Positions 1-21,579 of a DNA stretch of 64,000 bases are shown here, in pieces. Both the position numbers and the translations under genes were made by a program. Each line of letters opens with the position of its first letter. Position 1 is the stretch's first letter. The notes below the pieces were generated by a model. It did no database searches. It worked only from the letters and a program-made list of their open reading frames with translations, and was not told the DNA's origin. Source of the DNA: an uncultured archaeon (GTDB taxonomy: Archaea > Aenigmatarchaeota > Aenigmatarchaeia > QMZP01 > JACQNV01); contig CAYYYJ010000001.1 of NCBI GenBank assembly GCA_964476045.1, positions 50,733-114,732 of the forward strand, written 5' to 3'.

Positions 1-1210
1 CAGCCAATCGCATATCCGCGAATACTTTGAAATCCCTTGTTTTCCTGATTTCATCAAAAATTGTGTAGTCTGGCCTGACTAACAAAAGTATCTCGGCTGT
101 TTTTTCCCAGTCGCCATCTAAAGGCGCATACTGGGTGACCTCTTTTCCGACCTGAAGGTCTCTTGGCTGCTCGAATGTCTTGACTATTTTGCTTTTGGAG
201 ACGAGCATGTCAGCAACTGAAGCTGCGAAAGTTGACTTGCCAGATCCCGGAGGGCCTGCTATAAGGACGCCGACAGACTGGTCTGCTAACATTTGTTCCA
301 ATTTTTGATGTAACTTATAGTCTGCGAGATTTACCTTTGCGATTGGACGCACGGCTGTGACTTCTACAGCATCTGAGAATGGCGGACGGGCTATAGAAAT
401 TCTAAAGTTCCCAAGCTGTATTATCAAAGATCCGTAAGAACTCATTTCTATAAACGCGTCTTTCTGTGTCCTTGCTTTAAGAGCTATCTGGTCTGTGAGA
501 GCGCGCATTTCCTGTTCTGTCATTGGCTCTTCTCTCAATTTTACCAATTTCATTGCCCCTGGCTTCCCTTTTTTTGCCATCGGGACAACGTCTTCCTTTA
601 GATGGACAGATTGTGTGTCTTCTGTGAAAAAATCTTCTAGCCTTAGTTTCTCTTCTCTTAGGGGGACTGGACTATATTCAACTGAGATGCCCTCGACCTC
701 TGCTATAAGGGCTTGCACGTAATCAGAAGTCATCAAGACTGCTTTCTCTTTTGCAGCTGTATCCCTTATCAAAGCGTCTATCCTGCCTTTTTTGGCTAAC
801 TGGATCTCTTCCATTGTCGGACGCCTGCCTGTGAAAACAATTGTTATGCCCTTTTCTTTTCCAAGTTCTCTTATCCTTTTTATTTCCTGGAGTCCTTCGA
901 AACCGATGTCGCGGCTTCGGCTGGCCTGGGCTTGTAGCTCATCGAGAACCATCACAGGGATCACTATTCTAGTGTCTTTGAACTTCCCTTCTTTGAGAAG
1001 CTTTGATATTTTTCCCTGTATCAAAATAGAAGTATCTGGAACTATTGATCTTGGCTTTTTATCATCTTTCCCCAGACTTTCCTCGACTATCTTTTCTATC
1101 TCTTTCATCTCTTTTTTCAATTTTTGCTGGTCTTCTTTTTTAGAAGCATCGCTTTCGTTTATTTTTATTTTACTTTCTTCTACTGTTTCAGTAGTATTTT
1201 CATTTTTCAT
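1..1210 (-). CDS. PIN-domain ATPase (PilT/PhoH-like archaeal type), 5' end complete, C-terminus runs off window start
   Basis: Reverse-strand translation starts MKNENTTE at 1210; contains PIN-like segment IVPDTSILIQG and Walker A GPPGSGKST; not in ORF track because it is truncated by the window edge. Confidence 0.6.
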   Translation of the reverse strand, partial: MKNENTTETVEESKIKINESDASKKEDQQKLKKEMKEIEKIVEESLGKDDKKPRSIVPDTSILIQGKISKLLKEGKFKDTRIVIPVMVLDELQAQASRSRDIGFEGLQEIKRIRELGKEKGITIVFTGRRPTMEEIQLAKKGRIDALIRDTAAKEKAVLMTSDYVQALIAEVEGISVEYSPVPLREEKLRLEDFFTEDTQSVHLKEDVVPMAKKGKPGAMKLVKLREEPMTEQEMRALTDQIALKARTQKDAFIEMSSYGSLIIQLGNFRISIARPPFSDAVEVTAVRPIAKVNLADYKLHQKLEQMLADQSVGVLIAGPPGSGKSTFAASVADMLVSKSKIVKTFEQPRDLQVGKEVTQYAPLDGDWEKTAEILLLVRPDYTIFDEIRKTRDFKVFADMRLA

Positions 1211-1784: not shown

Positions 1785-2546
1785 CTACTTCTCCACCAGC
1801 TGAAAACTAGCCTCCCCGCCTGACTTGCTGATCTCACCCGTGATGCTCTCTGCCTCAGCTGTCATTTTGCTTTTTAGCTCTTTGTAATTCTTCCCTGTCC
1901 CTACAAGCATGTAATTGGGAGCGGATATGTACTTTACCTCGTAACCTTTAACAGCCGAAAGTGTCTTCTTTATCACCTCGACGCCATTTTCTTTGTAAGA
2001 AATTAATTTCAAAGCCACTCTAAGTTCATGAATTTTCTGGGAAGCGTTTTTCTCGATGAAAACTAGTATTTCTGACTTCCATTTTTCAGGCAGTTCCCTT
2101 TTCCTGAAAATCTCCTGGTTTTCCTCAGCCATTTTAAAGGCTTTTGTCAGCGAACCAAACTCGTTTTGCAAAGTATAGCCTACTTCTGCATAAGCTTGGT
2201 CTAGCGTTTTATTCAAATTCTTTGCTATGAGCTCTAAAACTTTTTCAGATTTCTTTTCCCTCTTAAATTCGTTTAATTTCCTGTCGCCTTCTTCCTTGCT
2301 GAGCCTTTTTGCAGAGAGTATAATTGTATTTGTCCTTCTGTCAACATCCATTACTTTACAAACTATGTATTGCCCTTCTTTCAAGAACTCGCGGATGTCA
2401 CGAACCCACCTTTTGGCTACTTCAGATGCGTGGATGAGCCCGATTGTTTTGTATTCTATAACATCGCAGGAAGCAGAATGCTGGTCGATTTTCGTGACTC
2501 TGCAAATAACCAGATCATGCCTTTTCGGATAATTTCCATCGCTCAT
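1785..2546 (-). CDS. eif2a: translation initiation factor 2 alpha subunit (aIF2-alpha)
   Basis: N-terminal S1 domain (PKRHDLVICRVTKI...GLIHASEV...YIVCKVMDVD) and characteristic aIF2alpha helical/C-terminal domain; sits in the conserved L44e-S27e-aIF2alpha archaeal operon. Confidence 0.9.
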   Translation of the reverse strand: MSDGNYPKRHDLVICRVTKIDQHSASCDVIEYKTIGLIHASEVAKRWVRDIREFLKEGQYIVCKVMDVDRRTNTIILSAKRLSKEEGDRKLNEFKREKKSEKVLELIAKNLNKTLDQAYAEVGYTLQNEFGSLTKAFKMAEENQEIFRKRELPEKWKSEILVFIEKNASQKIHELRVALKLISYKENGVEVIKKTLSAVKGYEVKYISAPNYMLVGTGKNYKELKSKMTAEAESITGEISKSGGEASFQLVEK

Positions 2547-2595
2547 AAGTATGATTTAGAATATGCTTCTTAGTGTGAATGCCTTGATCAGTCTA

Positions 2596-2763
2596 CTAAG
2601 AAACTTTGGCAGATATAATTTCAGCTTTGATATTAGCTTTCGCTGCCCTCGGTTCTGCCAGAACTTCATTGCAAACCAAGCATTTAACAAGAGTGGATGG
2701 CCTACTAAAAATTACCTGTTCGTTCTTGCACTTGCATTTTACTTTTAGGAATTCGTTCGCCAT
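2596..2763 (-). CDS. rps27e: 30S ribosomal protein S27e
   Basis: C4 zinc-ribbon FLKVKCKCKNEQVIFSRPSTLVKCLVCNEVLAEP typical of S27e; start moved to internal MANEF of the 2596..2799 ORF to fit the S27e length. Confidence 0.85.
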   Translation of the reverse strand: MANEFLKVKCKCKNEQVIFSRPSTLVKCLVCNEVLAEPRAAKANIKAEIISAKVS

Positions 2764-2832
2764 CTTAAAACCTCCAGCGGGTTTTAAGGAATCCAGCAAC
2801 CACTGGAAACCTTCTTCTATTTTCTAAAAATC

Positions 2833-3117
2833 TTATTGCAATTCGTATTTCTTTGCTCTAAATCCTTTTCTAAGATGCTGTTTCTTGCAGACACTGCAAA
2901 GATAACTGAGATTCAATTTCTTTGTTGGCTTGCCCTCGCCTTTTGGGTTAGGCCTTGGAAAACCGCCATAACCAGCCATCTTTCTTTCGAACCTTCTTTG
3001 CGACTGGGACTCTGGACGCTTGCTGCTTCTAGCCCTTTTCTTGACTATCTTTACTGTGTGCTCTGTATGCTTCCTGCACTTAGGGCAATAGGTCCTTACT
3101 AGTTTTGGCGCTTTCAT
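2833..3117 (-). CDS. rpl44e: 50S ribosomal protein L44e (eL42)
   Basis: [22 protein letters not shown] ... SVCKK zinc-binding L44e signature, 94 aa. Confidence 0.9.
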
Positions 3118-3153
3118 AATCTGCTTATTCTATTCCCAGATTTAGAATATTAG

Positions 3154-3165
3154 GTTTAAATAAGT
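3154..3165 (-). promoter_or_regulatory. candidate TATA box (TTATTTAAA on minus strand) upstream of the L44e-S27e-aIF2alpha operon
   Basis: AT-rich TATA-like element about 45 nt upstream of the L44e start codon on the coding strand. Confidence 0.3.
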
Positions 3166-3170
3166 CTCTG

Positions 3171-3686
3171 CTACGCTTTAACTGGTTGAGTGCCCTCTAT
3201 CCTCTCAGAAATACCCTTCTTTACTAAAAGTTCAGCTATCGGTTTTGGGACAGTAGCCATATCCCCTGACTTGAACGGCCCATACTTCTTCATATTAGTG
3301 CCAACAAATTCTTCTACATCCTGGAAAAATACCAAAAATTCCTCCTTCTCTTTTATGTCCATCTGCTTCTCAACTTTTTGGCGGAAGGATTTGATGACAT
3401 TCACTAAACTGTTAAAAAGTTCCTGTTCTTCGAGAGTCAGATTATCCAGAGTAACATTAGCCTTCACTGCGTTTATTGCCGAGTTGATTATTTTCTTCTC
3501 CCTGAGGTCTATAATATCCTGCAGCCTTCTTCGCGCAGACTCCAATTTCCATTCCTCCTCTGCAACTTTTGCTTTCTTATCCAGATAATTCAAAGCTTCG
3601 ACAAAAAAATCTTCTGGAATAGCGGTTAGTCTCCCTGTCGCTTTTTCCTCGTCTAAAATTTTTCTGATAGATTCGTAAGTTAGCAT
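3171..3686 (-). CDS. putative GINS subunit (Gins51/Gins15-like)
   Basis: Helical N-terminus MLTYESIRKILDEEKATGRLTAIPEDFFVEALNYL resembles GINS A-domain openings; about 170 aa; located in the same operon as the primase gene, as gins15 is in several archaea. Confidence 0.45.
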   Translation of the reverse strand: MLTYESIRKILDEEKATGRLTAIPEDFFVEALNYLDKKAKVAEEEWKLESARRRLQDIIDLREKKIINSAINAVKANVTLDNLTLEEQELFNSLVNVIKSFRQKVEKQMDIKEKEEFLVFFQDVEEFVGTNMKKYGPFKSGDMATVPKPIAELLVKKGISERIEGTQPVKA

Positions 3687-3694
3687 ATTTTAGA

Positions 3695-4537
3695 TCACCT
3701 TAAACTGAGTAAACTATCTGGTGGGTCACTCAGACCTCTTGATGAAGCTCTCATTACTTGAGATAAAGTTAGTTGACTATCCAGTCTAAATCCGCGAGCA
3801 CTGGTTAAGACCTTCCCCATCTCCCTATCAAATTCTCTAGAACCAGGCTCGTATACTCTAGGGATACAAATTACTCTTTCCTCTGACGAGTCCACAAGAC
3901 CTTTTTTCCGTTGTACCGTCACTTTAATTAATCTACTGTCTATTCCAAAATCCATTTCCCTAGACTCATATGGATGTATTTCGTCTTGAACTGGTTCTAC
4001 GACTATCAATGATGTTGAGCAATACTGATTCGGAACTTTTCCTTTTAGGGGTGTTCGAATAAGAACTTCTACACGTCTCTTTGTTCCGCGTTCTTTTAGA
4101 ATACCGTTATAAGAAAGATCTAGATAAGTTTCCTTCCCCCCATCAGGCCGTTTAGGAGAAATCATATATCTTAAACTGAACTCTTGGCCCAACTTATCAG
4201 TAAAATCTTTTGAGACCACGCTAGTTGGATTTGTATGAGGATTGCCATCCAAATAGGATAAAAAGGCATTCAGAACAAGACCGGAATTGAGTTTTATCCC
4301 CTCTACTCCATGAGGAGCATAAATGCTATTTTCGGCGACAATAACCCCATTCACATTAGATTTTCCAAATCTTTTTCTTATTTCATCGCCATTATCTTTT
4401 CTATGCAATGTTACGTAAACAAGACCACAAGATAACGTATGCTCCCTAAAGAACAAGCGTCTTCCTTCTGAAACAAACTCAACATCCAGATTTCTCTCAG
4501 ATTTGGCTGAATAATCAATAGTTGGACGTAATGCCAT
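3695..4537 (-). CDS. hypothetical protein (no recognisable domain), between primase and GINS-like genes
   Basis: 280-aa ORF with Arg/Gly/Pro/Ser-rich composition unlike its Lys-rich neighbours; tightly packed in the priS-X-gins operon. Confidence 0.5.
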   Translation of the reverse strand: MALRPTIDYSAKSERNLDVEFVSEGRRLFFREHTLSCGLVYVTLHRKDNGDEIRKRFGKSNVNGVIVAENSIYAPHGVEGIKLNSGLVLNAFLSYLDGNPHTNPTSVVSKDFTDKLGQEFSLRYMISPKRPDGGKETYLDLSYNGILKERGTKRRVEVLIRTPLKGKVPNQYCSTSLIVVEPVQDEIHPYESREMDFGIDSRLIKVTVQRKKGLVDSSEERVICIPRVYEPGSREFDREMGKVLTSARGFRLDSQLTLSQVMRASSRGLSDPPDSLLSLR

Positions 4538-4573: not shown

Positions 4574-5923
4574 TTATAAACTTCCTCCAGAATTCCAGCT
4601 CTCTATCCTTTCAAATTTCTTTTTGCCTGGTTTTCTGGCCAATCTGGGGGCCTTGGGCTTGTATGAACTCATTATCTTTACAGGATAGTTAATTGGGTTT
4701 TTCAGAAGTATTTTCGGCTGGCCGCAGATTCTGTCAGGCTTGCAGACAGTATCATACCAGCCAACAGATTTCTCTGATGGACAGTTAGGCGGTGGAAGCG
4801 TTTTATCTTTATTCAAATGCCATCTCAGCTGGCTCCTGATATAGGATTCTGGGAGCGGGGGAGAATTTTTCTGGTTCCATTCATTTATGTATTTCTCTAC
4901 ATCTTGCTCTGTCCATTTGGCTGCTTTCAGGAAGTTTATCAGGATAAAGACCCCTCTTTTCCTTCCGTCAGCAACCCCAGCTGAGATGTTCTTTATGCAC
5001 GGAGGGAAGATATCCTGCTTTATCGAGGATGTGATCTCAACTCTCCTGCTCTCCTTTATTTTCTCTGACTTTTCTGTTTTATTATAAAAATCTAATGTCT
5101 CTCCGATAAGGAGGTCTAACTCGCCTTCTTCTCCTGTATCCAAAAACCCTACAGTAGCATCGATTTTTTCTGGCACAGCATCCTCTTGCCTGAACTCCTC
5201 TAAGTCCTCTAGATTAACAGGAAGTGAAACCCAAAATTTTTTCATGTTCAGTGAATACGGCAGCCTGAAAAGATGCCTTGCAGACAACAAGATAGGATCA
5301 ATATCTACAATTTCAAAAGGATTTACCCCATCGCGTGTCATTATTTTTCCGAGAGGCTTTGAAGCCTGCTGTGCTAGTTCCTCAGGACTGTATTTCTTCA
5401 GCAAGGCTTTTTCTAAATCATCTTTAACCCTGGTTTTGAGGAAAGAAGCAACCTTTCTCGCAAGATCTGGGAACTGGTTTACAGTGGATTTATAATCTAT
5501 TTTCTTGGGTAGAGATTTCCAACTCAGACCTAAATGGAATCCAGTTCCCCCTGTAAATTTTATTGAGAGATTATGGACGCCAAATTTTTTCAGCTCTTTA
5601 GCTATTACCAAAGCTGCAATCTTTCCGTGATCGAACAGATCGCAATCCAAATCAAGAACAATATCCCATCCAACTCTGAGATCATTATAATTCCCTTCTT
5701 TTATAGAAGATGGGTTTGACCAGTGCTCTAAAGATCCGTGAAGCTCTATCACGCCAGATTTTGCCATTGTTGTTATATCTGTGGGAAATATGAGCGTGCC
5801 CGGCCTTTTGCTGAAAGCGCCTGTTTCATAAACTCCTGCAACCTCCCTGTTTGCAGAGACCTTGAGAAGCGCCTGCTGGATGTCTGGCCTGGAATAATAA
5901 TCAAGAACCTGCTGCCTGTCCAT
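4574..5923 (-). CDS. priS: DNA primase catalytic subunit PriS fused to a PriL C-terminal-like Fe-S domain
   Basis: AEP catalytic motif GWDIVLDLDCD and FTGGTGFH; C-terminal extension with FPPC plus three further Cys (NCPS, VCKP, ICGQ) resembling the PriL-CTD 4Fe-4S domain; 449 aa versus about 330-350 for a stand-alone PriS. Confidence 0.75.
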   Translation of the reverse strand: MDRQQVLDYYSRPDIQQALLKVSANREVAGVYETGAFSKRPGTLIFPTDITTMAKSGVIELHGSLEHWSNPSSIKEGNYNDLRVGWDIVLDLDCDLFDHGKIAALVIAKELKKFGVHNLSIKFTGGTGFHLGLSWKSLPKKIDYKSTVNQFPDLARKVASFLKTRVKDDLEKALLKKYSPEELAQQASKPLGKIMTRDGVNPFEIVDIDPILLSARHLFRLPYSLNMKKFWVSLPVNLEDLEEFRQEDAVPEKIDATVGFLDTGEEGELDLLIGETLDFYNKTEKSEKIKESRRVEITSSIKQDIFPPCIKNISAGVADGRKRGVFILINFLKAAKWTEQDVEKYINEWNQKNSPPLPESYIRSQLRWHLNKDKTLPPPNCPSEKSVGWYDTVCKPDRICGQPKILLKNPINYPVKIMSSYKPKAPRLARKPGKKKFERIESWNSGGSL

Positions 5924-6045
5924 ATGTTCTCATTTACTCTTAGATTTATAAACAAGAATAAGTTATTGGATCACGTGAGTGTTTCGGCTTCCAGAAAACT
6001 GTTCTTTTTCAATGCACTTTGTTTTTCCTACACAAACTTTCATAA

Positions 6046-8544
6046 TTAGCTATACTTCTCAATTATCTTTAAGCTTCTTTCCAATTCATCTATCGATTCG
6101 AGCATGCTCTCTTTTAGGAGCAATGGCAACTTCTTATTTTTCCCTAGGAACGCTTTACATTTTTTCAAAAATCCTTCTTCAACATAAACAGACGGGAACA
6201 GGTTGTCAAAGAAGTCCTCTGCATATTTCCTGTTCTTCTTTTCGAAAATCTCCAATATTTCTTTGAAAAAAGAATCGGAAAATTTCCTGAGGCCTTCTTT
6301 CTGCTTCCTGGAAAAGAACCTTGACATCCCAGTTCTCAGATAATCCAAAGAATATCCTTCACCTTTCACAAAAAGGTTCCAGTGCTCCTTCTTCTTTTCC
6401 GCTTTTGCAACTTTAGCTGCAAAAGCCTCTTTCTGGCCTTTATCGCTGCTATCTTTTTTTAACTCATTCTCTATCAGTAAATCTGTTTTAGGGTGACCGA
6501 AAACAGCAAGCCTATTTATGGACGCCCATCTCTGCTCTTGGTTAAATGGGAAATCTTTTATTTTCAACTTATTCTCTAAAAGTTCCACTACACGTTCGGG
6601 ATTTTTGCAGCCTCCTATACAAGAAGAAAGCAGATTAAACCAAACGTCTTTTAGCTCCCTGTCCATATTTTTTTGTATATTCTCTAGTGCAAAGCTGTAG
6701 ATTTTTTCGCAGTAAGTGAAGTAGTCTTCATCCTTCAAATAAGAGCCCAGTATCCCAGAAGCTCTGTTGAAAAGGGATTCGAGGATAAAGAGATTTTTTT
6801 CTTCAGGCGCTTTTTCTATAACAAGCTGTAAATATTTTTTCGGATCAAGAAAGGCATCCCTGACGCTCTGCCAAAGCGAACCATAGACCATCTGCCTTGA
6901 AAGGTCGTCCTGTATTTTCTGTATATTTTTTAGGGCATAGTTGACAGAACCTTCGTTGAGCCTTTCCTTCACATAATCATGGTCATTGTAATTCAATAAT
7001 ACAATATCAGGCTTCTCAGTTTTAGGGTCAACTTCTGTTAATACTCCTTTGTACTCGACAGAAAGCTCCTTTTGAACCCTTCCGTCTTTCAGAAAAGCTA
7101 TCTGACACCTATGCTCCCTAAGAAGGTTGTTTTTTAGCGAAGGATTTTGGACTATCCCAAGAGACTCCACTCGATTCCCTTCTGTCCTTATCATATATTC
7201 TATTGTATTCACTCCCGTAGTCTCAAGCCACATCTTTGCCCAGTTATCAAGGGATTTGCCACTCGATTTTTCCATGCACCCAAGAAAATCTTTGAGTGAT
7301 GTATTTGACCACTGGTATTTTTTGAAGTAAATCGAAAGCCCTTTTTTGAAAGCCTCCTCGCCAATAAAAAACATCAGTTGTTTGAGCACAGCAGCGCCTT
7401 TAGAATAGCTGATCCCATCGAAATTGCTGAAAGCCACATCAGTATCAGGCGCGTCAGCTGCTATTGGATGGGTTGTGACCCATTGATCTTCCACATACGC
7501 CCATGCCTTCCTCGCATAAAAGCTCTGCCATCCTTCTTTAAACTCTGTTGCTTGAACCAAGCCCAGGTAAGACAAGAAATCTGCAAAGCTCTCGTTCAAC
7601 CAGAGATCGTCCCACCATTTCATTGTCACAAGGTCGCCAAACCACATGTGCACCATCTCATGCAAAACAACATCGGCGAGAGTCGAACGCTCTGTCCTTC
7701 TTGGCTCATATCTGAACAGAAACCTTTCAGTGAACGTCACAGCGCCTACGTTCTCCATCGCACCGTGGTTGAACTCCGGAACAAATATTTGGTCGTACTT
7801 CTCAAAAGGGTATGGGAAATCAAAAAACTTCTGGTAAAATTCAAGGCCTTGCTTCGTGAAAGTGAACATGTCCTTATCTCTCAGGTATTTCTTCATTGAT
7901 TGCCTGCAAAATAGTCTGAGAGGTATTTTGCCTGATTTGTTCTGGACAGAGTGGAATTCTCCAACACTTAAGTGAAATAGATAAGTACTGAATCTAGGAG
8001 TTTGCTTGAAAAAAGTTGTTTTAAAATCGTTTTTATTCTCTACTTTTTCTTCCAGTGTGTTGGAAATCAAAGTCCATTCTTTTGGGGCCGTGACAGTCAA
8101 TTTGTATGTGGCTTTGATATCCGGCTGGTCAAAGCATGGGAACAGCCTGTGCGCATCGTAAGGCTCAAATTGCGTGTAGATATATTCTCTCTTGTCTTCA
8201 GGGTCTGTGAAATGGTGGAACCCTGTGCCTGTTTTATCGTATTCGTTTTCGTACTCAACTTCAATTTTGTTTTCTCCCTTTTTCAGCTGAGATTTATTTA
8301 TGATTAACGCAAAGCCTTCCTGTTTAAAATCAGATTTTTTATTGTTTACCCTCAGTATTTTGACATTTCCAATAAAATCTATTTTCAAATCGTCTTTAAT
8401 ATTTTTCAAAATAAAGTTGAGCTCGCATTTGCCTGAATAGGCCTTGCTGTTCTTTTTCAGGGAGACCTGTATTTTATAACTGACATCGCTTATCGCGGAT
8501 GTCCTTTTTTCTGCAAACTTTCTTGTCAGGATGTCTTCTGCCAT
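6046..8544 (-). CDS. pepN: aminopeptidase N (M1 family gluzincin)
   Basis: HEMVHMWFGDLVT (HExxH) followed by WLNESFA glutamate motif; 832 aa. Confidence 0.9.
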   Translation of the reverse strand: MAEDILTRKFAEKRTSAISDVSYKIQVSLKKNSKAYSGKCELNFILKNIKDDLKIDFIGNVKILRVNNKKSDFKQEGFALIINKSQLKKGENKIEVEYENEYDKTGTGFHHFTDPEDKREYIYTQFEPYDAHRLFPCFDQPDIKATYKLTVTAPKEWTLISNTLEEKVENKNDFKTTFFKQTPRFSTYLFHLSVGEFHSVQNKSGKIPLRLFCRQSMKKYLRDKDMFTFTKQGLEFYQKFFDFPYPFEKYDQIFVPEFNHGAMENVGAVTFTERFLFRYEPRRTERSTLADVVLHEMVHMWFGDLVTMKWWDDLWLNESFADFLSYLGLVQATEFKEGWQSFYARKAWAYVEDQWVTTHPIAADAPDTDVAFSNFDGISYSKGAAVLKQLMFFIGEEAFKKGLSIYFKKYQWSNTSLKDFLGCMEKSSGKSLDNWAKMWLETTGVNTIEYMIRTEGNRVESLGIVQNPSLKNNLLREHRCQIAFLKDGRVQKELSVEYKGVLTEVDPKTEKPDIVLLNYNDHDYVKERLNEGSVNYALKNIQKIQDDLSRQMVYGSLWQSVRDAFLDPKKYLQLVIEKAPEEKNLFILESLFNRASGILGSYLKDEDYFTYCEKIYSFALENIQKNMDRELKDVWFNLLSSCIGGCKNPERVVELLENKLKIKDFPFNQEQRWASINRLAVFGHPKTDLLIENELKKDSSDKGQKEAFAAKVAKAEKKKEHWNLFVKGEGYSLDYLRTGMSRFFSRKQKEGLRKFSDSFFKEILEIFEKKNRKYAEDFFDNLFPSVYVEEGFLKKCKAFLGKNKKLPLLLKESMLESIDELERSLKIIEKYS

Positions 8545-8551
8545 ATTTACT

Positions 8552-8887
8552 CTAGACCAGCTCGTGCTCCCAGATATTAAGGTTGAGCCTGTGGTTGTTA
8601 GAAATGAAGCCTTTGGTCAGCGGGGTCGAGATATAATCAACAGTAGTTTTTACAAAAATCTTTTTTCTTGCTAAAAAGTTTATCATGCCTAGCGTGTCCC
8701 TGTCAGAGAAAACATGTATCTGGCCGTGTTTTTTTATTATTTTATCTGTTTTTGTTTTTTTATCGAAAACCAAATCGAACTTTATGCCACAACAGTCATC
8801 GGCTTTCTTCAGCCTCAGCCCATAGCCTTTCCTATCAGCGAGCAACTGGGTCACCACGTGCACAGCCTTTTGAGTGAGGTCTATCAT
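8552..8887 (-). CDS. HesB/IscA-like protein (degenerate, lacks the C-terminal Cys pair)
   Basis: MIDLTQKAVHVVTQLL...GYGLRLKKADDCCGIKFDLVFD matches the IscA N-terminal fold and first Cys; no C-terminal CxC. Confidence 0.5.
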   Translation of the reverse strand: MIDLTQKAVHVVTQLLADRKGYGLRLKKADDCCGIKFDLVFDKKTKTDKIIKKHGQIHVFSDRDTLGMINFLARKKIFVKTTVDYISTPLTKGFISNNHRLNLNIWEHELV

Positions 8888-8891
8888 AATA

Positions 8892-9440
8892 TTACTTCTC
8901 CAACTGGTCTAGTATTCCTACAATTTCGTCGAATTTGCTGAACCTGATAACATTGCTTCCCTTGACATTCCTGTTCCAAGGCCTGTCTTTGAGCAGAAGT
9001 ATTTTGTTTCCGTCTAGGCTCTGATGCAAATTCGGATTATCTTCTATATAAATGTCATAATCGAGTTCATGCTTATTCGAATGTATAATAAAATTATTGT
9101 GAGGCACTGTATTTTTCAAAATCCATTTATTCAGGACTTCTGGAACAGCTGTTGCAGTTACTATATCGACAGTATAATCCTGTTTTAATTCCGCGAGAAC
9201 AGATTTTACACTGGAATCAGTAAACTGGACATTCTCCCAGTTTTCTAGCCAGAGGTTATGTACAAGGTCTATGCAAGATTTTGTATCAAGTCCGAGCTCT
9301 CGCGCTTTCCCTTCAAATCCCCATCCTGTTATATCTTCAACTGAAAACTGTGTTCCAAATTTCGCGGAGATATGATCACAGAATATGGAATGTATATCTG
9401 CAATCGTCCCGTCAACATCGACGAGTATCTTTTGCCCCAT
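8892..9440 (-). CDS. HAD-superfamily 5'(3')-deoxyribonucleotidase-like hydrolase
   Basis: N-terminal HAD motif I ILVDVDGTIAD; size and layout like the NT5C family. Confidence 0.55.
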   Translation of the reverse strand: MGQKILVDVDGTIADIHSIFCDHISAKFGTQFSVEDITGWGFEGKARELGLDTKSCIDLVHNLWLENWENVQFTDSSVKSVLAELKQDYTVDIVTATAVPEVLNKWILKNTVPHNNFIIHSNKHELDYDIYIEDNPNLHQSLDGNKILLLKDRPWNRNVKGSNVIRFSKFDEIVGILDQLEK

Positions 9441-9524
9441 AGTTATTTTTTCTTTTCAGGATATAAATTAGCAAAGTGACGTACTCCAAATGAAAAGATA
9501 TTTAAGCATACTTTAAACTAGTAT

Positions 9525-10064
9525 TTGGATATGGCAACCGAAAGCTCGAGACTAGTTTTATTGGGCCAGAAAGATGGCATAAGGGAGCTTGTAGATCGAA
9601 GTCCTCCATACAGGCTACCAAGAGGCGCTGCTTCACTACGCGAAGTATTAGAAAGAAAAGATAGGCCTTATATGTCAGGGAGGCTTCTACTGGTAACAGA
9701 CGATTTTTACGGAAAATCAAGCCGTTTTTGGTACGAGCATCCAGCAGGGTTAATCGAAAGTGGTGTTATAGCTGATAGTGACACAGAGACTCACCGAGAT
9801 ATTCGAAATCCTTTTGATTATGTTCAAGCATTGTTGCTGAAGGCTGAAATAGAAGCTGATATAGAAATTAGAAATGAGGGAAAAGATGTCGTAGGTGTAT
9901 ATCTCTTGAGAAGCAATCCAAAAGACAAACTAACAATAGGTCTTGGTAGAATTATCAGGCCTCAACCCTCAGAAGGCCCGCCAGTTGGTATTGGCTATGT
10001 TCATTTAGAAAGGCCGGCTCCTGTAAAAGCAGGGGGAACACAAGGCGGTTGGGATCTGGATTGA
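9525..10064 (+). CDS. hypothetical protein (orphan ORF in a 660-bp gap)
   Basis: 179-aa ORF with Arg/Gly/Pro-rich composition; only sizeable ORF in the gap between two minus-strand housekeeping genes. Confidence 0.4.
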   Translation: MDMATESSRLVLLGQKDGIRELVDRSPPYRLPRGAASLREVLERKDRPYMSGRLLLVTDDFYGKSSRFWYEHPAGLIESGVIADSDTETHRDIRNPFDYVQALLLKAEIEADIEIRNEGKDVVGVYLLRSNPKDKLTIGLGRIIRPQPSEGPPVGIGYVHLERPAPVKAGGTQGGWDLD

Positions 10065-17861: not shown

Positions 17862-19013
17862 ATGGCTCTCATAGACGTCGCTGAAAACCCTCTTGTTTTT
17901 GATGTAAATGACAGGCTGTCCAAAGTCATATCTAAGCTTCAGGAAGAGAAAAAATACGAAGCTTTTGTTTTCAATAGAAAGAATTTTATTGGTATAATTT
18001 CTGCGAAAGACATAGACAGCAAAGGGCTAACAGATCCGGAGACTGTAAAACTAGGCAGTTTAAGCAATCTTATCAGAAATGTAAAAGTGCTGGAATCAGA
18101 TACAGATTTGAAAGAGCTTGTGAACAAGTTTGTGATCAATAATTATAGGTGCGTCCCTATAGATGTTGATGGCGAGATAATGTGCATAACTAAGCTGGGT
18201 TTGCTCAAACTAATATCAACAGACAACTTCAAAGACAGGACAGCTTCTGATGTGATGTTTTTCCCTGAATGCGTGAGCCCTGAAGATCCGGTTTCTGTAG
18301 TAAAATCCTTGTTCAGGAATTGCAACGCTTACAGGATAGCTGTCTTGTCTGAGGGGAATAAGGTCGAGGGCATTGTAGACGAGCTGAATTTGCTGAAAAC
18401 ATTTGTTGAGCACAAAAAAACTTCCAGGGGAGGCAGGTCTGGGGAGAAGATCCATGAAAATAATGTCCCTATAGCTTCGCATTTGTTGATGGAGGAAAAT
18501 AATCCAGTTGTTTATCCAGACACAGAACTAAAATATGTTGTCCAGAAAATGCTGGAAAAGAATAACGATACTGTTCTAGTGAAAGAGGATGAGAAGCTTG
18601 TGGGGATTATAACTCCGAGAGAGCTTCTAAAGCTTGTTGGGTACGATATAGCTGGTATTTATGTAAATCTCTCAGGGATACAGGAGGAGGACACGTTTTT
18701 GCAGAATCTTGTTAATGCTGAAATCAGGAGCTCAATCCGAAAGCTAGCGAAGATAATCCATATCCATTACATGTCATTCAATGTGAAAAGAAGGGTGAAT
18801 CCGACAGAGGGCGCAAAGACCAGAGGCCGTGTAAGCTATAACGTGAAGGGGAAGCTTGTTTCTAACAAAGGCGCTTTTTTTGCAGACGATACATCATGGG
18901 ACCTGACTAAATCGACTCAGTCTATCCTGAAGAAGCTCGAAAGGGAAGCGATGAAGAAAGTCAGTAAAGAAAGGGATCGAAGGACTGAAGTTGTGATGGA
19001 AGAGGATGAATAA
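17862..19013 (+). CDS. CBS-domain protein (tandem CBS pairs) with basic C-terminal tail
   Basis: Repeated CBS-like segments (IGIISAKDI, RIAVLSEGNKVEGIV, LVGIITPRELL); C-terminal Lys/Arg-rich region. Confidence 0.65.
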   Translation: MALIDVAENPLVFDVNDRLSKVISKLQEEKKYEAFVFNRKNFIGIISAKDIDSKGLTDPETVKLGSLSNLIRNVKVLESDTDLKELVNKFVINNYRCVPIDVDGEIMCITKLGLLKLISTDNFKDRTASDVMFFPECVSPEDPVSVVKSLFRNCNAYRIAVLSEGNKVEGIVDELNLLKTFVEHKKTSRGGRSGEKIHENNVPIASHLLMEENNPVVYPDTELKYVVQKMLEKNNDTVLVKEDEKLVGIITPRELLKLVGYDIAGIYVNLSGIQEEDTFLQNLVNAEIRSSIRKLAKIIHIHYMSFNVKRRVNPTEGAKTRGRVSYNVKGKLVSNKGAFFADDTSWDLTKSTQSILKKLEREAMKKVSKERDRRTEVVMEEDE

Positions 19014-19018
19014 AAGAA

Positions 19019-20035
19019 CTATTCCAATTTATCCATCAGCCCATAATAGAACATTTCTTCTGCTAACCATCTAGCCGGTACCTCTGTAAGAAGTCTAAAA
19101 TGGTTTTGATTAAAGGTGTCTAATTTTCTGCCACTAGCCAATCTTTCTGCTCTCTGTATGCGATATTTCCTGATAGCATCTGCAAAAGTCGACGGCACTT
19201 CGGTCAGAACATTGATATCTAAGCTAATTGCTTCTCCTATAACTATTCTCGTTTTTTCAGTGTCTTGACCCAACCTTCTGCCAACTATCATCTCTCTCCC
19301 TGGAAGCTCGTAAACACACATTTGCCCATCGCTGTGGTCTTCTCCACTTATATCGGTTAAAGGTATTTGAGGCTGTCTATCCTTCTCAAATCTCCCAGTT
19401 GCTAAAAGTTCTTCTTGTACAGGCGACTCATAAATTATATTGTTGTTAAATATTTTAGCAGACAAGACCACTTTACCCACATTATCTCTATTTGGTTCTT
19501 GCTCAAAATACATCATGATAAGCTCTTCCCTGGTCATCGGTCTATTCGCGACGCCTATGCTGGAGACATGAACTACGACTTCACCAGTCTGTCTATCTAA
19601 TCTCGCAGTGGCTTGTATATTCTGTGGTCTAGGAGGAAATCTCTGCACATTGATCAGCAACTTAGCTTTTTTATCAGGACCAGAATCTGCTATATAATCT
19701 CCCACATATGTTACACCTTCTGTTGTTTTAACCATTATTGCGTTTTTAATCCCCCGTCTGTATTCTATACGCCTTGGTTTGCACTTTAAAGTAACACTGT
19801 CATTAGATCTAGATTCTTCATACTCAACACAAGCATTGGCCCCCAATTTATACTTGAGCTCTGCTCTTAGTTTTTCTTGAGGAGGTAGACCACCGTTAGG
19901 ATCTGCGGCGTAGCATCTTATAACTACAGGATCCTTAGGATCAATTGGGCCTAAAGAAATAATTCGGTTGCCGTGCATTCTCCTTAGATCTTCATCTGTT
20001 CCGGTTAGACATAAAAATCCTTTATATCTTGGCAT
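19019..20035 (-). CDS. hypothetical protein (no recognisable domain)
   Basis: 338-aa ORF, Arg/Gly/Pro-rich and Lys-poor compared with neighbours; convergent with the CBS gene. Confidence 0.5.
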   Translation of the reverse strand: MPRYKGFLCLTGTDEDLRRMHGNRIISLGPIDPKDPVVIRCYAADPNGGLPPQEKLRAELKYKLGANACVEYEESRSNDSVTLKCKPRRIEYRRGIKNAIMVKTTEGVTYVGDYIADSGPDKKAKLLINVQRFPPRPQNIQATARLDRQTGEVVVHVSSIGVANRPMTREELIMMYFEQEPNRDNVGKVVLSAKIFNNNIIYESPVQEELLATGRFEKDRQPQIPLTDISGEDHSDGQMCVYELPGREMIVGRRLGQDTEKTRIVIGEAISLDINVLTEVPSTFADAIRKYRIQRAERLASGRKLDTFNQNHFRLLTEVPARWLAEEMFYYGLMDKLE

Positions 20036-20082
20036 AAATAATCCTAAATGTTTTATAATTCCAAGTTTTAAAAATAGAACTA

Positions 20083-21579
20083 TTAAACTTTCTCGAGCTC
20101 AACGCCTCGTAAAAATTTCCTCAGGACTTGCGGCAGATCCTTTATCTTCACGCGGATTTGTTTCATTGAGTCCCTGTCTCTTAATGTGACATCATCTTGC
20201 TTTAGCGAGTCGTAATCTATTGTTATCCCTACCGCCACTCCGATCTCGTCTATTCTCCTGTAACGTCTTCCTATTGCGCCACCCTCATCATAAAATACAA
20301 TGAAGCCATGCTCTTCCAGAAGTTTCTGGATTTCCCTTGCTTTTTCTTGCAACCCATCTTTGTTCATCAAAGGGAAAATGCCTGCATCGAAAGGTGAAAG
20401 CAATCGCGGGAATTTTAGAACAGTCCTTTCTTTCTCTTCTGTGTAAGCAAGTTCGAGCAACGAATAAAGGTTCCTGTCCACACCTAAAGACAATTCCAAG
20501 ACATGTGGTATGAATTTTTTCCCGTTAATACTAATTTCCATCGATTGGCTGGAAACTTTCTGGTGGCCAGAGAGGTCGTGGTCCGTACGGTAGTGCACAC
20601 CGCCCACCTCCTTGAAGCCGCCTAAACTTTCCAGATCCAATTCTATGTCCCAGTGGTATTTATTGTAGAAAGCTTTCTCCTCGTCTGAGAGTTGTTTGAA
20701 CCTGAATTTTTCTTTTGGAAGCTTCAGGAGATCCAGATAAAACTGCTGGACTTTTGCAAGGTGGTAGACATAGAACTTTGGGATTTTTAATTTTTCAGCT
20801 GTTTCTTTGCAAGTCAGCTCTTCGATTTTACCGGATTTTCTATTAGCTACTGGGAATAGTCTTAGTTTGATATTCTCGACGTCTTTAAAATTAGGATGTT
20901 CATTAATCGTGTCCTGGTCAAAGAATATTTGGAGCTCTGCTTGCGTCAGCTCCCTCATCCTGATCAGCGCGTTCCTCGGCGCAATCTCATTTCTGAAAGC
21001 TTTTCCAATTACTGCAATACCTAAAGGCAGTTGCTTCCTACAAACTTCAAACATCTGCTTGAAATTTACATAGGCGCCTTGTGCTGTTTCTCCTGTAAGA
21101 TAGCCTGTTTTTTCCTGTTTGCCAACACCCAGCTTTAAAGGAAACATCATATTAAATTGGTTAACTTCTTTTATCTCGCCTTTACATTTGTCACATTTTA
21201 TTCCATGTTTTTTTATGAGTTTGAAGAGATCATCTGGAGACAGCCCCTCGAAAGCCTCTTTTAAGTGAGCTTCAACAATATGGTCAGCCCGCTCGGCGTT
21301 GCCGCATTTTCCGCATTTGGCAAGGGGGTCTGCAAAAGAAGCTAGGTGGCCTGAAGCTTTGAAAACATTTTCATGCATGATCAGGGATGGCTGGATCTCG
21401 TAATAATTTTCGTCCAGGCCCAGGAAATATTTTCTCCACAAGTTTTCCCATCGCCTTTTCAGGAATACTCCGAGATGGGCGTAATCGTAGAAGCCTGCAA
21501 GCCCTCCATAAATCGCGGAACCTTGCCAGAAGAAACCACGACGTTTTGCAATTTCGATCAGTTGGTCAGAGTTTACCAT
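20083..21579 (-). CDS. glyS: glycyl-tRNA synthetase (archaeal/eukaryotic alpha2 type)
   Basis: N-terminus LIEIAKRRGFFWQGSAIYGGLAGFYDYAHLG and class II motifs; 498 aa. Confidence 0.9.
   Translation of the reverse strand: MVNSDQLIEIAKRRGFFWQGSAIYGGLAGFYDYAHLGVFLKRRWENLWRKYFLGLDENYYEIQPSLIMHENVFKASGHLASFADPLAKCGKCGNAERADHIVEAHLKEAFEGLSPDDLFKLIKKHGIKCDKCKGEIKEVNQFNMMFPLKLGVGKQEKTGYLTGETAQGAYVNFKQMFEVCRKQLPLGIAVIGKAFRNEIAPRNALIRMRELTQAELQIFFDQDTINEHPNFKDVENIKLRLFPVANRKSGKIEELTCKETAEKLKIPKFYVYHLAKVQQFYLDLLKLPKEKFRFKQLSDEEKAFYNKYHWDIELDLESLGGFKEVGGVHYRTDHDLSGHQKVSSQSMEISINGKKFIPHVLELSLGVDRNLYSLLELAYTEEKERTVLKFPRLLSPFDAGIFPLMNKDGLQEKAREIQKLLEEHGFIVFYDEGGAIGRRYRRIDEIGVAVGITIDYDSLKQDDVTLRDRDSMKQIRVKIKDLPQVLRKFLRGVELEKV

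Follow-up and report, generated by a model that had tools for sequence, protein, structure and literature searches.

The window analyzed here, a 64,000-nucleotide (nt) stretch of contig CAYYYJ010000001.1 (positions 50,733 to 114,732) from an uncultured archaeon of the Aenigmatarchaeota, contains an open reading frame (ORF) for a 338-amino-acid (aa) protein that the initial annotation described as an orphan of atypical composition, convergent with a CBS-domain gene. The arrangement is as described, with the two stop codons 5 nt apart. The ORF lies on the same strand as, and directly downstream of, the gene for glycyl-tRNA synthetase (GlyRS), and its convergent neighbor codes for a HibA-type ribosome hibernation factor. 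Table 1 lists the features of this locus and of related loci. The 338-aa ORF belongs to a small, fast-evolving family confined to one narrow archaeal clade, and its product is predicted to have an Sm-like fold.

Table 1. Features of the 338-aa ORF and its neighborhood, and gene arrangements at related loci (coordinates are those of the window; P and L numbers are referred to in the text).
Feature	Coordinates or loci	Strand	Remarks
338-aa clade-specific protein, coding sequence including stop codon	19019..20035	-	from the ORF list; ATG start
Intergenic region from GlyRS stop to ORF start, 47 nt	20036..20082	-	contains promoter-like element
TATA-box-like element ATTTTTAAAAC	20065..20075	-	39 nt upstream of the ATG; promoter function inferred
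Residues 94-135, conserved three-strand block (IKNAIMVKTTEGVTYVGD...KLLINVQRF)	19631..19756	-	candidate Sm1-like motif of barrel 1 (inferred placement)
Residues 136-168, insertion	19532..19630	-	low-confidence loop; shared by no member other than the window protein and its 84%-identical relative
Residues 169-210, conserved block with NVG...KIFNNNIIYE	19406..19531	-	candidate Sm2-like motif
Residues 238-285, best-modeled beta-block (CVYELPGREMIVGRRLGQD..TRIVIGEAISLDI)	19181..19324	-	candidate second or principal Sm-like barrel
Helices after the 238-285 block	residues 283-300 and 321-330		
HibA-type ribosome hibernation factor, 4 CBS domains and C-terminal HPF/RaiA domain	17862..19013	+	Pfam CBS in 4 stretches; phmmer
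Glycyl-tRNA synthetase (class II)	20083..21579	-	Pfam tRNA-synt_2b and HGTP_anticodon; upstream of the ORF
P0007 locus			GlyRS(+), ORF(+), CBS(-)
P0006 locus			18-kb contig; gene order as in the window for about ten genes, S17e to PheRS
P0005/L004 and L005 loci			GlyRS, ORF, CBS
P0003/L003 locus			upstream gene not GlyRS; same tail-to-tail CBS partner
Conserved ∼58-60-aa ORF	L033, L034, L043, L046, L047, L052, L059, L067, L083; also L026, L029		230-355 bp gap after GlyRS (first nine loci)

The ORF is a real gene under purifying selection. A 338-codon open frame is expected by chance at 40% GC with a probability of ∼3e-10 per start, or ∼4e-5 over the whole window. The closest homolog (P0001; 337 aa, 84% identical) comes from two short ENA contigs, on which it is flanked by the same genes as in the window, and codon alignment of the two gives a ratio of nonsynonymous to synonymous substitution rates (dN/dS) of 0.19, with 25, 32, and 83 differences at codon positions 1, 2, and 3, respectively (a third-position excess), and a single codon indel that is in frame. 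More distant protein homologs, down to 22% identity, are conserved in length. The lack of a database family and the atypical composition might have pointed to a spurious or noncoding frame, the outcome that the initial annotation had named as fatal to its proposal, but the conservation analysis clearly rejects this, and the probability that the frame is not a gene is negligible. The start codon is validated by the N terminus, M-x-R-(Y/H)-(K/R)-x-F, which is kept across the family alignment, and the protein has no transmembrane segment, since its maximum 19-residue hydropathy is only 1.14.

Relatives of the protein are few. Word-indexed homology searches gave only the 84%-identical relative and one distant member, and it took an exhaustive HMMER scan, over 1.84 billion representative proteins, to obtain five credible relatives in all, one of them a C-terminal fragment (93% identical) and the others, P0003, P0005, P0006, and P0007, at 26 to 32% identity. 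A sixth match, P0004, is a 624-aa repeat protein with a score summed over eight stretches and was judged spurious by inspection, and L005 provides a further member beyond the relatives from the scan. Scanning genomes with profiles of the family and of HibA/CBS gave nothing, nor did a scan of JGI metagenomes with the ∼300-aa subfamily. The family has about seven known members, all from one narrow Aenigmatarchaeota clade and all in the same chromosomal slot, in agreement with the earlier suggestion of a lineage-specific protein, and its alignment has 16 to 19 invariant positions. Searches of Pfam, NCBIfam, PDB sequences, PHROGs, and PADLOC have no matches to the window protein or any relative, including Pfam at E ≤ 1 for each of six members and PDB sequences at E ≤ 10. 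At the sequence level, the absence of recognizable motifs noted initially therefore holds, and the family is uncatalogued, with no Pfam or NCBIfam model.

Every member with genomic context is organized tail to tail with a HibA-like CBS gene, with stop codons 0 to 5 nt apart, and GlyRS is immediately upstream in five of the six distinct contexts. Between the window and L004, identity is 83% for GlyRS, 60% for the HibA protein, and 27% for the ORF, and between L003 and L004 it is 77% for the HibA protein and 40% for the ORF; by these sequence comparisons, divergence of the ORF tracks that of its flanking genes but is several times faster. GlyRS-anchored retrieval from species-representative genomes gave 79 loci, nearly all labeled Candidatus Aenigmatarchaeota (DPANN), and ∼30 of these 79 have, downstream of GlyRS, a convergent CBS gene about as long as HibA but no family ORF. 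GlyRS and the CBS gene are directly adjacent (gap of <120 bp) in ∼16 of these ∼30, and the rest have either a ∼60-aa conserved ORF or assorted unrelated genes in between, which by eye we take to be ADH-like, RidA-like, HIT-family, and rhomboid-like genes, an ABC ATPase, and others. These slot-filling ORFs were considered as hidden family homologs and rejected, as none is related to the 338-aa family. Because the two genes are adjacent or variously separated in ∼30 loci, the GlyRS/CBS convergent junction is a permissive, variably filled slot and a hotspot of gene turnover. In ancestral Aenigmatarchaeota, the order appears to have been GlyRS, convergent HibA-like gene, and S17e.

The phylogenies of the two flanking genes bear on the history of the ORF. 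All ORF-bearing genomes fall within one GlyRS clade (200/200 bootstraps), within which the window is nested with the ORF-less L006, L037, and L044 (187/200), implying later loss or replacement; in the CBS tree all ORF bearers are grouped (197/200), implying a single gain. Both trees fit one origin in a narrow clade. The contents of the slot elsewhere are varied. In L006 (GlyRS 86% identical) it spans ∼5 kb (4646-9723) of other genes, among them two ORFs of 1127 and 321 aa on the opposite strand and one of 178 aa, and in L044 it contains a 126-aa ORF that is RidA/YjgF-like by eye. About ten other Aenigmatarchaeota have the conserved ∼58-60-aa ORF (MAKVEMLVVKSKV...RRSTVKGRDI), in one or the other orientation, between GlyRS and HibA; it has no Pfam match.

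The intergenic region upstream of the ORF contains an element that is conserved with it. The ATTTTTAAAAC box is present with at most one mismatch 33 to 50 nt upstream of the start in the window, L001, L003, L004, and L005, and L003 has it despite an upstream gene other than GlyRS. The exact 11-mer occurs once in the window, and TATA-like octamers are found upstream of 13 of the 56 window genes where ∼2.4 are expected (about 5-fold), with a peak at -40 to -30. The ORF thus probably has its own TATA-type promoter and is not simply cotranscribed with GlyRS.

The protein was initially described as Arg/Gly/Pro-rich and Lys-poor, and comparison with the 51 long ORFs of the window upholds this for Arg (9.2% versus 4.4 ± 1.8) and Lys (5.6% versus 9.9 ± 2.2) and more mildly for Pro (5.9% versus 3.7 ± 1.4); Gly is average (6.8% versus 6.9 ± 1.7), and "Gly-rich" is wrong. 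The Arg bias is a maintained property of the protein, as R/(R+K) is elevated throughout the family (0.48 to 0.63, compared with ∼0.31 for the host) and nine basic columns are conserved in the family alignment. The atypical composition is confined to the protein level, because the DNA is host-like in GC content (z 0.2), in codon adaptation index (CAI) relative to window genes (z 0.04), in its Arg codons (87% AGA/AGG, with a host mean of 86%), and in tetranucleotide signature (residual z 1.6). GC content at third codon positions (GC3) is lowish (z -1.6), and at first and second positions (GC1 and GC2) it is raised by the amino acid content. The comparison with the host backbone that the initial annotation proposed as a check on foreign origin thus finds a host-like gene.

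Two other Arg-rich orphans in the window, at 3695-4537(-) (280 aa) and 9531-10064(+) (177 aa from the first ATG), had been grouped with the 338-aa ORF. The excess of Arg over Lys is indeed common to them, and all three have low GC3 (z -1.6 to -2.4) with raised GC1 and GC2. They have no mutual homology, however (hhalign probability of 0.2% against the 338-aa family), and their distributions are all different. L084, a close relative (PCNA 90%, primase 82%, and GINS51 87% identical), retains the 177-aa ORF and lacks the 280-aa one. The 177-aa orphan adjoins PCNA and has a 59%-identical homolog at L084 11381-11842(-), although the pair that it forms with NT5C is inverted between the two genomes; it matches nothing in Pfam or NCBIfam and, judging from this homolog, is a real conserved gene. 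The 280-aa orphan sits between primase and GINS51, which are 54 bp apart in L084, and a word-indexed search of 5.8 billion proteins gave no homolog of it; being both homolog-less and absent from L084, it is a genome-specific insertion in the primase-GINS operon, and its GC3 (z -2.4) and CAI (z -2.0) are both low. A 307-aa ORF at the edge of L084, which is K-rich, was considered as a family member and rejected. The proposal that the three orphans are components of an undescribed system is not supported; their shared compositional style is typical of the lineage-specific genes of this genome, and they have three histories, not one.

Structural modeling provides the main indication of what the 338-aa protein may be. 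A single-sequence AlphaFold run was unusable (predicted local distance difference test [pLDDT] of 38), and a run with a six-sequence alignment gave a predicted template modeling score (pTM) of 0.59 and a mean pLDDT of 59.5. The confident beta-blocks in this model are at residues ∼95-135 (pLDDT 75-80) and ∼235-335 (80-90), and the N-terminal ∼93 residues are poorly modeled (pLDDT <50). A Foldseek search with the model matches archaeal Sm proteins at a probability of 1.00 with target TM scores of 0.6 to 0.7, and the predicted structure has the strongly bent five-stranded antiparallel beta-barrel, usually with a preceding helix, that characterizes the Sm fold. The candidate barrels are tentatively placed at residues 94-135 together with 185-205 and at residues 238-275 with later strands. 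The 94-135 block, with predicted strands at 99-103, 109-118, and 124-133 (pLDDT 75-80) and invariant residues G107, G112, L127, and Q131, contains the best hhalign match to the Sm beta1-beta2 region, although this is not significant. The insertion at residues 136-168 is a gap in all ∼300-aa members and has pLDDT <50, and the 169-210 block that follows it has invariant residues Y176, G187, and F196.

Sequence comparisons with known Sm proteins are not significant. Against PDB-verified archaeal Sm sequences, hhalign gives E values of 0.06 to 0.4 and probabilities of <4%; the best local matches, themselves nonsignificant, put the Sm1 position at residues 94-113 and the Sm2 position at 178-208, which is the right order. 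Residues 178-208 align with the Mth649 Sm2 region "GTVLIRGDNIVYIS" (E of 0.06 to 0.12, not significant), with "KIFNNNIIYES" paired to "IRGDNIVYIS" at the Sm2 position. The Sm1 and Sm2 motifs with their RNA-contacting residues (Asp or Asn in loop 3 and Arg-Gly in Sm2) are not matched in the family alignment, which has the invariant G112 and Asn or Asp at 129 but an Sm2-equivalent block that reads (K/V)-(I/V)-F-(N/G/R)-(N/V)-(N/D/A), without Arg-Gly. An internal duplication relating barrel 1 to barrel 2 was considered and rejected (hhalign E of 0.15, not significant), and no native SmAP gene for comparison was found in the window or the retrieved loci. The remote homology and structure searches proposed in the initial annotation have therefore had a divided outcome, with Sm-like resemblance at the level of the fold and no membership at the level of sequence, such that the protein is only halfway to assignment to a known family.

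The protein differs in several ways from the Sm-like proteins described to date. It has no significant sequence similarity to SmAP1/2/3 or the Sm/LSm/Hfq superfamily (Pfam LSM PF01423, Sm-like clan), and at 338 aa it is far larger than the ∼75-aa SmAPs, from which it is distinguished by an extra N-terminal domain, long insertions, C-terminal helices, possibly two barrels per chain, and the missing Sm2 Arg-Gly. Moreover, almost all archaea have SmAPs, but this family is limited to a single small clade. Edc3, Gemin6/7, and Naa38, the eukaryotic divergent LSm proteins with extensions, have no detectable homology to it and differ in domain position and context, and the likeness is architectural only.

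The product of the convergent CBS-domain gene aligns end to end with PDB 9sr9_H (phmmer E of 1e-19; residues 13-374 to 17-379), including HibA residues 270-379, although Pfam sees only its CBS part. Chain H of 9SR9 is the Pyrococcus abyssi ribosome hibernation factor HibA, described in 2025-2026, in which four CBS domains are followed by an HPF/RaiA domain at the C terminus (PMC13324472). With four tandem CBS domains, a C-terminal HPF/RaiA-like domain, and a length close to ∼390 aa, the window protein is, as judged by sequence, a full-length HibA homolog. The 338-aa ORF product shows no similarity to CBS or HPF/RaiA domains, and it is likewise unrelated to the dual hibernation factors ARC-P and ARC-A; these are both CBS proteins and are not applicable as a model for a HibA partner. 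The window GlyRS is 50 to 87% identical to those of 79 DPANN genomes, mostly Aenigmatarchaeota, with the closest at 85 to 87%. The archaeal nature of the window is evident from its genes for aIF2-alpha, GINS51, PCNA, S17e, a tRNA-splicing endonuclease, and a 449-aa primase, and the S17e-HibA-ORF-GlyRS locus has a translation flavor. Rfam and tRNA scans of the window gave nothing.

Two further observations concern genes away from the ORF. The primase at 4574-5923(-), a single 449-aa ORF, matches DNA_primase_lrg and, weakly, DNA_primase_S/LigD_Prim-Pol, a pattern suggestive of a fusion of the small and large primase subunits; such fusions are known in some DPANN or Nanoarchaeota. On the P0006 contig (ENA ERZ27297570), the region syntenic with the window codes at locus coordinates 2099-3190 for a 363-aa reverse transcriptase (RVT_1) beside PheRS-alpha, and the window has no counterpart of it between the GT4 gene and PheRS.

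The reading that best accommodates these observations, with about an even chance of being correct as a whole, is that the ORF is a clade-restricted, fast-evolving gene for a protein with one or more noncanonical Sm-like barrels that binds RNA or ribonucleoprotein (RNP) or acts as an adaptor. The gene would have arisen or been captured once, at the permissive junction between convergent GlyRS and HibA, and would have since been inherited with the locus under purifying selection at a substitution rate much above that of its neighbors. The product is likely a soluble cytoplasmic protein of an expressed-looking gene with its own putative TATA-type promoter, and its conserved core would fold as one, possibly two, Sm-like small beta-barrels without the canonical Sm2 Arg-Gly, flanked by the poorly modeled N-terminal domain and the C-terminal helices. 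A noncatalytic role in RNA/RNP binding or as an adaptor would be served by a surface composed of the Sm-like barrels and conserved Arg/Lys and aromatic residues. Several points weigh against this interpretation. The Sm-like assignment depends on a medium-confidence model (mean pLDDT of 59.5) built from six sequences, the fold-search output does not indicate the matched residues, every sequence-level Sm test is nonsignificant (no Pfam match; hhalign E of 0.06 to 0.4), and Phe-Asn stands where Sm2 canonically has Arg-Gly. Family members are not basic overall, with near-neutral pI values of 6.0 to 8.7, and many divergent LSm domains bind proteins rather than RNA. In addition, the GlyRS and HibA trees disagree on later loss in L006 and L044, and the origin of the gene may be de novo, by capture, or by extreme divergence.

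If the barrels instead mediate contacts between proteins, like those of Naa38, Gemin6/7, and the Edc3 LSm domain, the protein would not bind RNA and could be a clade-specific translation or hibernation accessory or regulator, such as one that partners or opposes the adjacent HibA or the ribosome. This is rather unlikely, as convergent gene pairs weakly predict functional linkage, the slot is filled in other lineages by unrelated ordinary genes (as a permissive insertion site would be), the ORF is missing from ∼30 Aenigmatarchaeota loci that do have a HibA-like gene, and the papers examined on HibA and ARC include no comparable partner. It is also improbable, if only slightly more so, that this is a young gene, de novo or captured, with marginal function and a barrel that is a generic beta-rich fold of no specific role; the very narrow distribution and very fast divergence favor this, as do the low GC3, which suggests weak codon selection or low expression, the loss or replacement that, going by the GlyRS tree, appears to have occurred in L006 and L044 (both close relatives), and the lineage- or genome-specific nature of the two other R-rich orphans of the window.

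The initial annotation also raised laterally acquired viral or defense-related cargo, and the atypical amino acid composition and the differing slot contents among lineages are in its favor, as is an imperfect 25-nt direct repeat (19009-19033 and 20070-20094 of the window) that has a 9-nt exact core (AGAACTATT) and whose copies stand right at the ends of the cassette. Its interpretation as a target-site duplication was rejected, however: the repeat has a P value of 0.014 against shuffles in the window only, is not reproduced in the four other members examined (L001, L003, L004, and L005), and scores no better than cross-genome controls, and it is treated as chance. Viral or defense relatives are also missing, with 0 families for six members in both PHROGs and PADLOC, no defense genes adjacent to the ORF, none of 51 pattern matches in IMG/VR contigs confirmed, and no BFVD structure matched at E ≤ 0.001 (only weak matches of small-barrel size). 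The codon usage and Arg codon choice are those of the host, family divergence is congruent with the flanking genes, and the insert is a single gene with its 47-nt promoter-bearing region, with no integrase, tRNA gene, or other cargo. An origin as virus, plasmid, or defense island cargo is thus not supported and highly improbable.

A more specific role, in which the Sm-like protein would be an auxiliary factor particular to this clade that serves ribosome hibernation or translation control and works with or against the tail-to-tail HibA, perhaps by binding rRNA, tRNA, or a HibA-associated Shine-Dalgarno-like RNA or by modulating HibA release, is a long shot, and a convergent neighbor across a slot of variable content says little about a functional link. 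If it were true, the rapid evolution of the ORF would reflect coevolution with HibA in host-dependent DPANN cells. Apart from this, the protein is one among many DPANN hypothetical proteins, and nothing points to a new kind of system. The ORF is also a clear-cut case of a taxonomically restricted gene that was gained where two convergent genes meet and then diverged several-fold faster than its neighbors, and if the structural prediction holds, it would show the extent to which the Sm-like barrel tolerates divergence and repackaging into a larger protein in genome-reduced DPANN archaea. Its fixed place beside HibA provides a testable hypothesis, that archaeal ribosome hibernation may have lineage-specific add-ons.
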